From: Cyanobacteria bacterium auto_48_18
Lineage (GTDB): Bacteria > Cyanobacteriota > Vampirovibrionia > Obscuribacterales > Obscuribacteraceae
Length of the DNA: 64,000 nt
Reading direction: 5' to 3'
Assembly: GCA_036170915.1 (NCBI GenBank)
Contig: JAVHQC010000022.1
Location: forward strand, 1 to 64,000
Shown here: piece after piece, positions 52,599-58,891 of the stretch
How positions within the stretch are numbered: position 1 is the first letter of the stretch
Layout: each line of letters begins with the position of its first letter
Made by a program: the position numbers and the translations under genes
Notes under the pieces: generated by a model
Databases searched by the model: none
Seen by the model: only the letters and a program-made list of their open reading frames with translations
What the model was told of the DNA's origin: nothing

Positions 52599-53492
52599 TC
52601 AAAGAGCGCCGCCATTTGATTCACGCACTGCTTTGTAAAACTGACTACGCCTCAGCTGATTGACAAAACTTTTGCGTAGTTCCGTCGCACTCTCATCTTG
52701 CGCGTGAAAGCGCTCCATTAACTGCCTGGCTTTATCTGCACGACCACTGAAATAAAGCTGCACTAGAGTGTGATAGAGAGGCTCCCAAGTTTTTTCACTA
52801 CTTTTTACTTTCAATTCGTCTATTAATTGGTCATCTAGTTTGACTGCATTGAGCTTCTTTATAGCCGAGAGATCGACCACAAATTTATTGCGGCGCCAAA
52901 CCATTGGCACTTTTGGAAATTCATAAACTCCAGATCGCCAGTAGCGAAAAATTGCGTCTTCGAATATCAGAATTGGTTGTGATGGCCGGTTTGAGCGCAT
53001 GGTGAGCATGTGGCCGTCACCTAAAGCAAAGTGACCAATGTGGCTGAACTTGTGATTGAGTGAGTAAATATCATAGGTGTAGCAGCAGTGCGCGCCACCA
53101 GTCCACTGGCGAACAATCAATTCGTTGATGCCGTCACCAGTTAGATCAAACAATTTGATTTTTCCATGGCCTGCAAAACCCAGATTTGGATGCTCGCTGG
53201 AAGGATCCACAAGGGCAAAGTCATGCGCGCTCTGGTCGAGCAATACGCGACCGGCACGCGTCACCACCAGCCTTTTGTGAAAGTCGTCACCTGTTCTTTC
53301 TTTGATTTGAATTGTAAATTCGTCATGGCGGCCCAAGTGAAAGGTTTGATTATTGTCGGCTGCAGCCATGGCGGCCAGCGGCGCGATTATGGCTGTAAAT
53401 GATACGGCTGTGAATAGTGTAGCTGTGAACACAGCCGCCGCGAACAAACCCACGAGTGATGCGCTTTTTGGCTGATGGTGGCCTGAGGTCAT
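52599..53492 (-). CDS. Exported hypothetical protein (WTGGAHCC motif)
   Basis: Signal-like N-terminus; DLTGDGINEL; ATGA overlap with the upstream gene. Confidence 0.75.
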   Translation of the reverse strand: MTSGHHQPKSASLVGLFAAAVFTATLFTAVSFTAIIAPLAAMAAADNNQTFHLGRHDEFTIQIKERTGDDFHKRLVVTRAGRVLLDQSAHDFALVDPSSEHPNLGFAGHGKIKLFDLTGDGINELIVRQWTGGAHCCYTYDIYSLNHKFSHIGHFALGDGHMLTMRSNRPSQPILIFEDAIFRYWRSGVYEFPKVPMVWRRNKFVVDLSAIKKLNAVKLDDQLIDELKVKSSEKTWEPLYHTLVQLYFSGRADKARQLMERFHAQDESATELRKSFVNQLRRSQFYKAVRESNGGAL

Positions 53493-54802
53493 GTTTCCGC
53501 CAGGGGCGCGTATTCTTCTTCACTTAAACCAAATGTCCAGGCCACGGCTTGTCTTGCCCGCATCATATTTGGTGGCACACGTAGAAAGTATTCTTTAATC
53601 GTTCCGTCAGGTTCTGGTGTAGAGTTTTGCACTCTCACCACAAGAATAGGCTCATCGCTGGCCAGGTTCATGCGGTATAAAATGCCGCATTGATCCTGGT
53701 GAATTTTAATAACTCGGCCTTCGCGCAAGTAATTGTCCAGGCCATATCGTTCGATCAGTACGCGGCGAATCTCAGCATTTGGTTCAGACTCGATTAAGTC
53801 AAAAGTAAGGGGTTCAGGCAACAGCACAACGTAGGCGGGCACGAGCACTCCGTGCCAGGCATAGATGCCCCAGCCATCGCGAAATTTCATGGCCATGTCG
53901 GTTTCGTTATGCAGACGACTGCGATTATCGCGGTGCAATGTCTCTGGCTTTTCGGTCAATATGCAAACATTTTCAAATGGCCACCACCAGCTGCTGGTCT
54001 TGGCTAATTCAATCAAACCGTGCAATGGTGCAGTACCTTCCACCCCAATTTGGCTGACAAAGTCATAGTAGGCGAGCCAACCGCTATCATGCTGACCAAA
54101 GCCGCCGTCCCACTTTTGCAAACCGGCAAGTACACCGGCCATGCCGGGCACCACCTGTCTGAGCGGTTCGGCAACGTAACTCCACACCTGTTGGTGCAGT
54201 GGTTTAACCAGTTCGTGATAGATTTGATCAGCAACCGCAGGCGAAAGTCTGCTGTCGATTTTTGCTTTGACCTCGCCTTCGGCCACTGCGCGAATCTGCT
54301 TGTAGACTGAGCTTCCGGCCAGTTGCCTGAGATACTTCCAGACATAAATGCCAAGATTTTCTGCGAAAAGATCCTTTACTTGTTTTTCAATGGCAATGCC
54401 ATGTTTTTCTGCAATCTTTTTTGTAGCAGCCTGGCGAATATTGCGGCGCACCGCCTGCCAGGTTTCGGGGCCAACCATTTCGCCCACAGTCTTGAGCGAT
54501 TGTTGCCAGACTTTATCCCAGACATCGACCTGTCCGGTGTTGAGCTGAGCAGGCCAATCGACGTCGCTGTAGATAAGCTTCATGGCCGTATTTCCGGCCC
54601 AGGGTGATTGCAACCAGATAAAAAGTCGCGGCGGCGCGAGACCAGCTGCGCGGTAGGCTTCTGTGGCGGCGGCTTCAGCTTGCGCGCGGTCGCTCGGGCT
54701 GGTGGAAAAACCAATTCCGCGCCACTTGATGAGGTTTTCTTCTAAAAGATGTTGATCAGCAGGAGGAAGCCAGGTGACGGGCCCACTGTCAGTCGATGAC
54801 AT
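53489..54802 (-). CDS. DUF6745-domain protein
   Basis: GQHD..WL, WWWPFENVC, RLH...GWGIYAWHGV, EPNAEIRR, NSTPEPDG..YFLRVPP...AVAWTFG; start MSSTDSG at 54802. Confidence 0.85.
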   Translation of the reverse strand: MSSTDSGPVTWLPPADQHLLEENLIKWRGIGFSTSPSDRAQAEAAATEAYRAAGLAPPRLFIWLQSPWAGNTAMKLIYSDVDWPAQLNTGQVDVWDKVWQQSLKTVGEMVGPETWQAVRRNIRQAATKKIAEKHGIAIEKQVKDLFAENLGIYVWKYLRQLAGSSVYKQIRAVAEGEVKAKIDSRLSPAVADQIYHELVKPLHQQVWSYVAEPLRQVVPGMAGVLAGLQKWDGGFGQHDSGWLAYYDFVSQIGVEGTAPLHGLIELAKTSSWWWPFENVCILTEKPETLHRDNRSRLHNETDMAMKFRDGWGIYAWHGVLVPAYVVLLPEPLTFDLIESEPNAEIRRVLIERYGLDNYLREGRVIKIHQDQCGILYRMNLASDEPILVVRVQNSTPEPDGTIKEYFLRVPPNMMRARQAVAWTFGLSEEEYAPLAET

Positions 54803-55142
54803 CTCGAGGAGGCGCCTCCGGTACATATTCTCTTTGTTGCACAACGCGATAAACGCCTTCGGGCAAGAATATTGTGCCGTGCTCTTCGTGCACCAGGTTT
54901 GCACCGCCGGGTTTTGTCACTACGTACCGTTCGCCTTTGGCGGTGAAGAATGAGGCGGTGTCAGTGCTGATGGCGTGGGCGTGTCCTGTCACTTCACCAA
55001 ATTGCAAGATGATGCGCTTCTCGCATTCTACCTCTCGCGCTTCAGCCGGCAGCCTATCAATTTTTTGTACGAGCACATCACCCTGTCTGTAAGTTTGAAA
55101 CTTGATGGTTGGGCGGTCGCCTGTGCGGGTTTTTAAAAGCAT
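54789..55142 (-). CDS. Small His-motif protein, habitual partner of DUF6745
   Basis: YRQGDV, GEVTGHAH, HEEH, YRVVQQREY. Confidence 0.85.
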   Translation of the reverse strand: MLLKTRTGDRPTIKFQTYRQGDVLVQKIDRLPAEAREVECEKRIILQFGEVTGHAHAISTDTASFFTAKGERYVVTKPGGANLVHEEHGTIFLPEGVYRVVQQREYVPEAPPRDVID

Positions 55143-55260
55143 ATGATTTCTCGACTTTAAAAATATTCGGATAAGTGAAAGTCCATTACTTTATCTGCCC
55201 AGTCAGCTTCATGCTGAAACTGTGCAATGAATCAAACGGTTAACAATTTATCGTATCAAT

Positions 55261-56313
55261 TCAACGCATTAATGCGCGAATGCCATAACGCATGGCGTGA
55301 TTGACCGTGGTGCGAGCCACTCGCGCGCCTGTACGCTTGGCTTGGGTTTTGATTGGGTGCGCTTTTGGCGTGTTTCCAATCATGGGCTGACTGGCAAGAT
55401 CTGCACCAGGTGCGATTTTGCCTGAGGCGTCGAGATATTGCTCGTGTTTGTCATAAGTTGGCTTGCCATAGTCTGAATAATGCGCCACGTCAAAGCGCTC
55501 GTAGGGCTCAAAGGGGTGAGTCGCCATGCGTTCGTGCATGACTATGTCTACTGTTTTGACATTGCGAGGCGGAGTTTCGCCGGTGGCCGGGTTTACCGCC
55601 CTTACGTTGTAGAAGAAATCGGAGGCAGGTTTTTTGGCTTCATATTTTAAATCGAAACCTTGCATGTGACTGCGTTTGCTCATGCCCGGGTCGTGTGTGG
55701 CAATATGGGCCGTTTGCAGTTTGGCAAATTGGGCTTTTTTGTCAGCCAGGCTTAATTCTGGATTGACCCAGATAGCATTGAGCTCTTTGGCCAGACCAAA
55801 TTCGTGCGCTAAATCTTCAGCGTGCCAGTAACCGGGCAAGCAGGTCAAAATTGTGCCGTCAGCGGCCAATACAAAAATCTGCAAATTATGCGGCCCGGCG
55901 CCGTTGGTTGTATCAACCGCGGTCTCATCCGGCTTATGTTTGCCTGAAGCCCCGGCATATTTCTGATTTTCGATGTTTCTGTAGCCCACGACAAAATCGT
56001 CTTTGAGCATTGAAAAAACTGGTTCTGTTGAGAGCGACACGGCCCTCAGGCTATTGCCGGCACTTCACGTACTGCCGTCAATTTTGCCCAGCATATGCAC
56101 CCAGACAATTAATTTGCCTGACCGTGACGCCTCGATTTGAGCTTTATTGAGCGATTTGTACCACTCAACCTCGCTTACGAGCTGGTGCACTCTGGCCGAA
56201 CAAACTTCGCCACTCAGCACCTGCTTAGCGGCCTGGGCTGGAGTTGCCAGCAGGGTAAGCATGGCAAGAGCTAATGTTTGGGAACTAATTTGCCGAAAAC
56301 GCTTCTGTAGCAT
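55261..56313 (-). CDS. Putative exported SelN-like thioredoxin-fold selenoprotein (Sec at codon 83, TGA 56065-56067), 350 aa
   Basis: Two ORFs in one frame separated by one TGA; context GKIDGST-U-SAGNSLR resembles SELENON [16 protein letters not shown]; SECIS-like hairpin follows. Confidence 0.8.
56031..56064 (-). promoter_or_regulatory. Candidate bacterial SECIS element
   Basis: AGUG C CGGCA AUA GCC UGAG GGC CG UGUCG CUCU immediately 3' of the UGA. Confidence 0.6.
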
Positions 56314-56566
56314 GACAGTTCTCTTGCCGGTGACTTGGAGGCTTTCACATTTTGAGTACGTGATGTGTAGACAATATCTTCTTTTAAGAGTATTGCAAAG
56401 TGAAAAAAATTGCTTTGACCGGGCGTAGTTTATCGGCTACGAACGTTTGCTGAACGGGCAAGATGATAAAGTCGAAACTATGTACCTGGGTCAAAGCGCT
56501 AAGCGCTTGCTGGACAACCTGCATGAATCATAAAATTAGTCATGCCAAAGTGAGGATCGGAGTAGT

Positions 56567-58891
56567 ATGCGTGTACTTCTAGTAGAAGACAGCTTGGTGC
56601 AAGCTGACGTCGCTCGAAGCAAGCTAGAACAAAGAGGGGTAACCGTTGAGTGTGCAAAGACACTCATGGAGGCTATCGACTTTTTGCAAAATTCTGATTT
56701 TGACGTGATTCTGTTAGACCTTTCGTTGCCTGACAGTCAAGGCGTTGAGACTTTCTACCGAGTGCGCGCCGCTGCGCCTGATATTCCAACGGTTGTTTTA
56801 ACTGGAATTGACGATCAAGACGTGGCGCTCACAGCTTTGAAAAAAGGGGCGCAAGATTATCTCGTCAAAGGCCAGGCCAGTGATGACTCTGTTTATCGCT
56901 GCCTCGGTTATGCCATCGAGCGCAACAACGTAGAACTGGCGTTAATTCGCAGTGAAAAACGTTTGCGCATCATCGTCGAAAATACTTACGACGCATTTAT
57001 TTCAATGGATTCGCACTGGCGCATTACTGATTGGAACGCGCAGGCTGAGCGCACTTTCGGATATAAAAGACAGGAGGCACTGGGGCGTCCGTTATCAATG
57101 ATTGTGCCGCAGCATTTGCGCCGCCAATACACGCGAGAAGTGGCAACCTTCTTCAAAAGTGATGAAGAAGATGATTTTTCGCGCATGCATAGCGAGCTGA
57201 TGTGCACTCACAAAGACGGTCATGAATTTCCCATTGAGATGGGAATTTTTAGAGTGAGAGTGGATAACGGTTGCGTTTACTGCGCATTTGGCCGTGACAT
57301 TACCGAACGCAGACAATTGAACGAAGAACTTGAGCGCCGCGTACAGCTGCGCACCACTGAACTGACGCGCTCAAACGAAGAACTAAAGCAATTCGCTAAA
57401 ATTGCTTCACACGATTTGCAAGAGCCACTGCGGGCGGTGCAAGGATTTGTTAATTTGCTTTCTGAGAGCACAAAGGGCCAGCTCAACAAAGACTGCGAAG
57501 AGTTCATGGAATATATTCTGGATGGCACTCATCGCATGCAGCAATTAATTCAATCTGTATTGCTGCACTCAAGCATTACCAATCATGACAATGACTTCTC
57601 GGCGGCGCCGTCGACTGATGTTGATGGAGTTATCGACGAAGTTCTTGCCAACCTCGATGCTTCGATCAAGGAAAATCATGCTACTCTCGAAGTCGATAAC
57701 TTGCCTGAGGTAGCCGTTGATCGCTCGCAGCTAATTCAGCTATTTCAGAATCTGATTAGTAACGCTATCAAATATCGTGGTGATCAACCGCCGCAAATAT
57801 TCATTACAGCCGAGCGAACTGTTGATGAATGGCTGTTTTCTGTAAGAGATAACGGCATCGGCATTGATTCAAAATATGCAGATCGAATATTTGATATGTT
57901 TGCCCGTCTGCATGGCAAGACAAAGTACAAGGGCACAGGCATGGGCCTGGCCATCTGTAAAAAGATCGTCGCATTGCACGGCGGCAGAATTTGGGTGGAG
58001 TCGGAATTAGGACAGGGGTGCATATTCCTATTTACTCTACCAGCAGCAAGAAGACCCCCGAGGAGAGCGGCCATGGATACTAATATAGAAATACTTTTGT
58101 TTGAAGATACACCTTCAGATGTGCGCCTGACGCAGGAAGCGTTGAAGCGTTCTGATCTGAAATATACGCTCCAAGTTGTTAACGACGGCGTTGAAGGGAT
58201 GGATTATCTCAATGAAGTGAAGCGGTCTGAGACCAAACGCTTGCCTGATTTGATTCTTTTAGACTTGAACATGCCACGTAAAAATGGCCACGAAGTGCTG
58301 GAAGAAATCAAAAGCGATAATCATTTGAAGGGAATTCCAGTGGTGCTTCTCACTGTGTCGCAGCGCGACGAAGACGTAATGGAAGCTTTGAAGACCAAGA
58401 TGAACTACTATCTGGCTAAGCCAATTACTTCTGCCAAGCTTTCAGTGCTTGTGAGAGCCATTTGTGAATTGCAGGCTGAAAATGCCGGCGGTGAACGTCA
58501 TCCGGTAGAAGAAGAAACGCATGTGCGGCTGGTGCTGGCAGGAAATCCACACACATCACCCACAATTTTGGCCAAGCTGGCCACTGATGCCAATGCTCGT
58601 GTACGTGCTCGAGTTGGTGAGAATCCAGAAACTCCAGAGCATTTGCTGACCAAGTTGGCTGATGATGAAGATTCTGATGTACGCCTGGGCGTTTCTGAGA
58701 ACCCAAATATTCCTGCTGCACTGCTCGAGAAATTGGCTAAAGATGCCAATGAAGATGTGCGGTTGTCCATTGCCGGAAATCACAAAGTGCCTAATACGAT
58801 TCTATCGGCCCTGGCCGAAGACCAGAACACCTTTGTGGCCGCTGGTGCAACTAAAACACTAGCTGAACTGGCAAGCGGTTCGCGGTCTTAG
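56567..58891 (+). CDS. Hybrid histidine kinase: REC-PAS-HisKA-HATPase-REC-LRV/HEAT repeats
   Basis: LLDLSLPD, ASHDLQEPLR, NLISNA, DNGIG, GMGLA, LLDLNMP, repeated LA.D...VR..V..NP.TP. Confidence 0.92.
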   Translation: MRVLLVEDSLVQADVARSKLEQRGVTVECAKTLMEAIDFLQNSDFDVILLDLSLPDSQGVETFYRVRAAAPDIPTVVLTGIDDQDVALTALKKGAQDYLVKGQASDDSVYRCLGYAIERNNVELALIRSEKRLRIIVENTYDAFISMDSHWRITDWNAQAERTFGYKRQEALGRPLSMIVPQHLRRQYTREVATFFKSDEEDDFSRMHSELMCTHKDGHEFPIEMGIFRVRVDNGCVYCAFGRDITERRQLNEELERRVQLRTTELTRSNEELKQFAKIASHDLQEPLRAVQGFVNLLSESTKGQLNKDCEEFMEYILDGTHRMQQLIQSVLLHSSITNHDNDFSAAPSTDVDGVIDEVLANLDASIKENHATLEVDNLPEVAVDRSQLIQLFQNLISNAIKYRGDQPPQIFITAERTVDEWLFSVRDNGIGIDSKYADRIFDMFARLHGKTKYKGTGMGLAICKKIVALHGGRIWVESELGQGCIFLFTLPAARRPPRRAAMDTNIEILLFEDTPSDVRLTQEALKRSDLKYTLQVVNDGVEGMDYLNEVKRSETKRLPDLILLDLNMPRKNGHEVLEEIKSDNHLKGIPVVLLTVSQRDEDVMEALKTKMNYYLAKPITSAKLSVLVRAICELQAENAGGERHPVEEETHVRLVLAGNPHTSPTILAKLATDANARVRARVGENPETPEHLLTKLADDEDSDVRLGVSENPNIPAALLEKLAKDANEDVRLSIAGNHKVPNTILSALAEDQNTFVAAGATKTLAELASGSRS

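Follow-up and report, generated by a model that had tools for sequence, protein, structure and literature searches.

Several described systems lie close to the gene presented here. Eukaryotic selenoprotein N (SELENON), as characterised in the accessible part of PMC12839072, is a 590-aa protein with an SCUG motif, an EF-hand and a type II membrane anchor. Bacterial recoding of UGA (SelA/B/C/D) relies on a SECIS hairpin, for which the available portion of PMC13188914 gives a model: a 3–9 nt loop, a 4–16 bp stem, 16–37 nt spacing, G in the first two loop positions and an MFE of at most –7.5. Among thioredoxin-like proteins, the closest are the VPGUxxT family of bacterial selenoproteins (NF041382, NF041383) and the Thioredoxin_7/DsbH/AGR2–AGR3/UAS-type group (PF13899, PF03190; structures 3f9u, 2lst, 3ph9, 3ira). 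A 2022 review, in the part of it that is accessible (PMC9312934), lists Cyanobacteria among lineages that apparently lack Sec use, on the basis of early genome sets.

The window analysed here, a stretch of 64,000 nt, carries a gene of this kind in a non-photosynthetic member of the cyanobacterial phylum. With a probability of about 0.97 we infer that it encodes a selenoprotein, Sec being inserted at codon 83. The locus resembles known bacterial recoding systems in its in-frame UGA, in a hairpin within the coding region at 23-nt spacing, in G-U at the first loop positions and in the presence of tRNA-Sec, selB and selD. It differs from them in its host, in a selA that is unassembled and in that no molybdopterin oxidoreductase was found.

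Reading frame and SECIS-like hairpin

Two predicted ORFs, 56065–56313 (82 aa, ATG) and 55261–56040 (259 aa, GTG), share a frame on the – strand. The first-pass annotation had claimed as much, with a single TGA as the sole interruption, and translation confirms it: when TGA is read as U the two join into one 350-aa product whose only internal TGA is codon 83, and the peptide quoted across that codon matches the translation exactly. The N-terminus also fits the signal peptide that had been proposed for the read-through product, showing a basic start, a hydrophobic stretch and A-Q-A at 26–28 (judged by eye). The 350-aa frame is closed by a TGA where close orthologs have TAA, so TGA also functions as a stop in this organism. 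A sequence search around the locus revealed neither a promoter-like site nor a terminator on the gene's own strand, and Rfam has no family within 54500–57000. The nearest named relatives are Candidatus Obscuribacter and Obscuribacterales (69–94% identity), which makes this non-photosynthetic order the most likely source of the window.

Table 1. Features of the putative selenoprotein gene, in window coordinates
Feature	Position	Strand	Evidence
Complete 350-aa reading frame including Sec83, closed by TGA 55261–55263	55261–56313	–	Translation
Predicted cleavable signal peptide, residues 1–28	56230–56313	–	Inspection by eye; similar N-termini of homologs
In-frame TGA, inferred Sec83, motif T-U-S-A-G	56065–56067	–	Translation, paralogs, genome and metagenome loci
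SECIS-like hairpin within the coding region	56029–56048	–	Folding, fixed synonymous codons, pair counts
Predicted thioredoxin-fold domain, residues about 40–183, with a conserved His/Asp/Asn-rich insertion (114–142)	55765–56196	–	Model, structural matches, homologs
Conserved helical C-terminal domain, residues 183–300	55414–55767	–	Separate model, conserved alignment columns
Variable C-terminal tail, residues 301–350; low model confidence	55264–55413	–	Homologs, model

The hairpin has a 7-bp stem and a 6-nt loop, CGUGUC (56036–56041), with G-U at its first positions, and it agrees on all four counts with the bacterial SECIS model as set out in the accessible text of PMC13188914. The 48 nt counted from the UGA fold at –13.8 kcal/mol, a stability that is unexceptional (z –0.89; 38 of 200 shuffles fold as well). 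The codons are more telling. Across 66 distinct TGA copies, Ala91 is GCC in 66/66, and Val92 GTG, Ser93 TCG and Leu94 CTC are fixed in 65/66 each, with free variation in the codons that flank this stretch; all six core stem pairs form in 64 of the 66. The four copies that encode Cys or Ser at position 83 keep the residues R-A-V-S-L and spell them with different codons, and the set of 46 genome loci shows the same pattern of fixed codons. In a sister clade the hairpin recurs in the same register with one pair changed from G-C to A-U on both sides (87/90 cells paired), so that the covariation amounts to one change between two clades. We regard this codon constraint as stronger SECIS evidence than fold stability.

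The start codon picked by gene callers for the downstream ORF, GTG 56038–56040, is the apical loop of the same hairpin. That a GTG is present had been noted correctly; the statement that it has no clear RBS needs correction, as GAGG lies just upstream, only 2–3 nt away and inside the hairpin stem. A scan of the genome for the hairpin motif gave 109 raw matches, 12 of them with open frames of at least 25 codons on both sides, and only the three paralogs looked real; the scan missed a further gene on contig C36 (see below) and is not a full selenoproteome.

Some neighbours tend to accompany the gene. A divergent hybrid sensor kinase gene (56567–58891, +) lies beside it in 12 of 16 genus-level loci, and two downstream genes (53489–55142, –), one of 117 aa and the other a DUF6745 gene, do so in 11 of 16. 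By eye, the kinase comprises a receiver, PAS, a histidine kinase, a second receiver and C-terminal repeats.

Conservation of the TGA and the selenocysteine machinery

The split made by gene callers and the existence of the downstream GTG start would both fit a TGA that is a genuine stop, leaving two separate proteins or a pseudogene. We consider this very improbable. Such a stop would cut the thioredoxin domain after its first strand, homologs exist in which the frame is uninterrupted and has Cys, and every stop-bearing copy among the genome and metagenome loci read has TGA, with TAA or TAG in none. The first-pass annotation had pointed to homologs with Cys or TGA aligned at position 83, and to conservation of the TGA across relatives, as evidence for recoding; both kinds of homologs turned up, and the TGA is widely kept. 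It occurs in 3/3 close paralogs of this genome, window gene included: the other two (C22:442163, –, and C16:91224, +; 44% and 47% identity) have it at the identical site, followed by 36 nt near-identical to those of the window gene. It is present in 46/46 genome loci (31 distinct 90-nt windows; the two source collections overlap) and, among 80 metagenome loci, in 75 of the 79 that cover the site, the other four having Cys (3) or Ser (1); the remaining locus begins downstream of it. We found the family in 92 of 107 Obscuribacterales genomes, mostly in 2–4 copies each, and 147 of the 150 matches listed across these genomes contain a TGA (103 further matches lie beyond those listed). Outside the order, none of 118 genomes in a class-wide sample of other orders matched. 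The recurrence of TGA at the same site in two paralogs and in relatives from two collections argues, on sequence grounds, that it is neither chance nor a sequencing error.

Database records carry the trace of the split that had been expected of standard annotation. Among the 120 homologs listed, 114 start after the site, and 15 of 15 N-terminal fragments checked stop exactly one residue before it. Three database proteins (P0099, P0122, P0133) have W at this position, which might suggest that the organism reads TGA as Trp (genetic code 4). We give this reading next to no weight. Genome loci with matching or near-matching peptides (L093, L094) have TGA, and split forms of 237 aa share a cluster with P0122, so the W is most likely a gene-calling choice or artefact; moreover, TGA terminates many ordinary genes in this genome, and tRNA-Sec is the only tRNA with a UCA anticodon.

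Uninterrupted homologs with Cys aligned at 83 comprise P0007, P0020, P0023, P0125, P0163, P0173, P0248, P0261, L075 and L135–L143, of which P0163 and P0173 belong to clusters that bear the name Planctomycetota. Ser takes the position in P0016, P0017 and L171, and two distant Planctomycetota-like rows (P0194, P0201) are without a redox residue there. In photosynthetic cyanobacteria the more distant homologs have Cys at the site in 9/9 loci read, and selA was found in 0/5 genomes tested; these proteins (L135–L143) are exported homologs of 390–525 aa in which one Cys occupies the Sec position. A Cys/Ser clade (L075, L171, L177, L178, L213; P0016, P0017, P0020, P0023) has lost the SECIS codon constraint and is found in genomes where selA and Sec copies are present too (G090), a pattern that suggests decay from Sec to Cys to Ser after duplication. 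A quick tree with weak support places these Cys/Ser copies among the Sec copies. The natural occurrence of Ser at this position implies that not every copy depends on a redox residue.

The call for the selA/B/C/D genes was answered in part. tRNA-Sec is present (C16:70007–70101, 75.8 bits versus a cut-off of 47), and selB on contig C1 and a Cys-type selD on contig C6 score over their cut-offs; selA was not found in the assembly of this genome, which is 86% complete, nor was SepSecS found in the genome. The missing selA would again fit a genuine stop. It is countered by contig C27, which starts (1–100, L092) inside a gene of tandem peptide repeats that relatives have next to selA, and by the presence of selA in 13 of 14 same-genus genomes; selA thus probably sits in an assembly gap at the start of C27. 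Over the 107 genomes, 81 have the family and selA, 10 have neither, 5 have selA only and 11 the family only (10 of these <90% complete), counts that are descriptive, kin not being independent. The claim of a single UGA-recoded gene is supported by TGA conservation, Cys homologs, SECIS-type constraint and the Sec machinery. No molybdopterin oxidoreductase (PF00384) was found in the same 86% complete assembly, so formate dehydrogenase, the commonest bacterial selenoprotein, seems to be absent from it. Another feature of the tRNA complement is a pair of dense arrays of 9 genes each (C33:15652–16458 and 164122–165603), duplicating tRNAs found elsewhere in the genome.

Predicted fold and possible chemistry

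That the product has a thioredoxin fold, as had been proposed, is supported by the predicted model and its structural matches. The AlphaFold2 model has a mean pLDDT of 67.7, falling below 50 at 119–141 and at 81–86, the active site itself. It shows thioredoxin topology with residue 83 between the first core strand (68–74) and helix 85–94, where it would start the active-site helix, in the low-confidence segment. The best structural matches, over residues about 40–190, are all thioredoxin folds, led by 3f9u at Z 9.9 (109 residues superposed with rmsd 2.7) and followed by 2lst (Z 8.6) and AGR3 (Z 8.2), with Z-scores near the level that the comparison tool calls common. A second structural comparison puts the same families on top, and a profile of the wider family matches AGR2 and 3ira at E 0.004–0.006, placing the Sec column opposite the Cys of CPHS in AGR2 and opposite the first Cys of CHWC in 3ira.

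The protein shares with the Thioredoxin_7/AGR2 group the fold, an N-terminal helix, a Trp motif and the alignment of Sec with the first active-site Cys, and AGR2 is likewise without a second Cys. It differs in its low identity (9–15%), in scores below the Pfam cut-offs, in an extra conserved insertion, in the C-terminal helical domain and in having Sec for Cys. Modelled alone, residues 183–300 form a separate helical domain with a mean pLDDT of 92.6 and invariant Arg, Asp, Glu and His residues in the alignment. This domain has no match with Z of at least 5 among 48,161 chains (best 3.4), which is not proof of a new fold, and no Foldseek match under E 2.

There is no CxxC or UxxC pair. The motif is U-S-A-G, with Gly at the resolving position and hence no resolving Cys. 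Elsewhere in the protein, Cys158 is kept in 102 of the 120 listed homologs, and Cys38, present in each of the 24 rows of alignment A2, is absent from both paralogs of this genome. The three histidines His126 (119/120), His142 (118/120) and His260 (120/120) are nearly universal among the listed homologs. A Pro just before the third strand is kept in 115/120; it occupies what we take to be the position of the substrate-binding cis-Pro of thioredoxins.

The role that we favour, with some reserve, is that of a periplasmic single-selenol reductase or isomerase. SelB, bound to the hairpin that follows UGA83 at a spacing of 23 nt, would deliver Sec-tRNA, yielding the 350-aa protein, which the signal peptide would export to the periplasm. 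In the mature protein of 322 aa the helical domain would come after a Thioredoxin_7/DsbH/AGR2-type thioredoxin fold, with Sec83 at the start of the active-site helix, in the first Cys position of CxxC. From there Sec83 might attack disulfides or oxidised cysteines of envelope proteins, after which an outside thiol, or perhaps Cys158, would resolve the mixed Se–S bond so formed. Fold and Sec position are predicted by the model; export, catalytic role and substrates we infer. Gene neighbours give no clue to the substrate.

Another function is conceivable for the same selenoprotein: Sec83 and the conserved histidines might bind a metal or metalloid or reduce peroxides, with no exchange of protein disulfides. 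The greater conservation of His126, His142 and His260 relative to Cys158, the UxxG motif without a resolving Cys and the invariant polar residues of the helical domain all speak in its favour. It is nonetheless the less probable option, as the top structural matches all belong to the thioredoxin family, most being thiol-disulfide enzymes or protein-binding folds, the annotated neighbours include no metal-handling or peroxide genes, and the Pro before the third strand is well kept.

The family and its relation to selenoprotein N

Neither the protein nor its relatives match Pfam or NCBIfam (June 2026) above cut-off, a PDB sequence search with alignment A2 gave 0 matches at E up to 10, and ESM Atlas returned nothing beyond bacterial clusters without names and weak leads to Thioredoxin_7. 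The VPGUxxT models do not match the window protein at E up to 1. Distant relatives of the family match them weakly (best E 1.4e–5, 24.9 bits), far below the cut-offs of 275 and 350 bits, and the Sec motif differs, there being no VPGU. Among the 119 prokaryotic selenoprotein families that PMC13188914 tabulates, the accessible part shows no SELENON-like family and no matching motif, names and motifs being compared, not sequences. Nor is the family mentioned in the available portions of PMC13326102, PMC5029168, PMC12013277, PMC7539508 and PMC13578239. Our literature search, which did not extend to Haft and Tolstoy 2025 and the BSepDB supplement, both possibly bearing on novelty, found nothing on this family among the papers listed, and nothing that links Obscuribacterales with selenoproteins. 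We judge this to be a real selenoprotein family, uncatalogued as far as the family models and the names and motifs of the catalogued families go.

The family has wider kin. A sister clade found in many Obscuribacterales genomes (L095–L124) bears a Cys-Sec dyad, C followed by TGA in 26/26 distinct loci read, with a single Cys-Cys copy (L088). It is homologous to the window protein (27% over 120 aa, pairwise E 2e–11; E 1e–8 in the genome search). A fourth gene of the superfamily in this genome (L125; C36:94034–94963, +) is likewise split by UGA, at TGA C36:94430, and has a Cys-Sec dyad and a signal peptide; by eye, it may also form a SECIS-like hairpin whose loop reads GGUCU. Other genomes of the phylum (G231:C169, G324:C290, G405:C15) match the wider profile weakly, each match having one TGA.

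How the window protein relates to SELENON is more difficult to say. The sequence flanking its Sec presumably resembles the redox region of human SELENON, with the TGA at the Sec position. Both proteins would have Sec in a thioredoxin-like domain within an oxidising compartment (ER lumen versus inferred periplasm), and the Cys-Sec dyad, which the window protein lacks, is present in homologous bacterial sister clades. Against SELENON as described in the accessible part of PMC12839072, the window protein has S-T-U-S (Thr-Sec-Ser) in place of SCUG, a signal peptide in place of a type II membrane anchor, 350 aa versus 590, and a SECIS in the coding region versus the 3′ UTR. Its thioredoxin domain begins directly after the signal peptide, and no Pfam EF-hand was matched in it or in 24 aligned members. 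A search aimed at SELENON found nothing among the proteins of 654–2000 aa that were scored, a range outside which SELENON's 590 aa fall. We do not file the window protein as SELENON; by analogy, it may work like it. Given the Cys-Sec dyad in the sister clade and in the fourth paralog of this genome, shared ancestry with SELENON is plausible, with chances somewhat better than even. Taking the parts jointly, we lean towards a broader picture, in which the window gene is a branch of a large uncatalogued bacterial superfamily directly homologous to the SELENON redox domain. Obscuribacterales would have expanded it into Thr-Sec and Cys-Sec paralogs (four genes here), which may be the main reason why the Sec machinery was kept, and photosynthetic cyanobacteria would have kept only Cys versions.

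These results add a multi-copy selenoprotein family whose genes are cut in two by gene callers across a whole bacterial order, and they place Sec use inside the cyanobacterial phylum, which the accessible part of PMC9312934 reports as apparently lacking it. For constraint on the SECIS, the Cys and Ser copies are a clean control supplied by nature. If the homology with SELENON is true, the chemistry of SELENON could be tested directly on small soluble homologs with Cys or Sec, and the soluble bacterial Sec, Cys-Sec, Cys-Cys and Cys forms would serve as a simple model of a human protein that is linked to myopathy and has a poorly defined catalytic mechanism.
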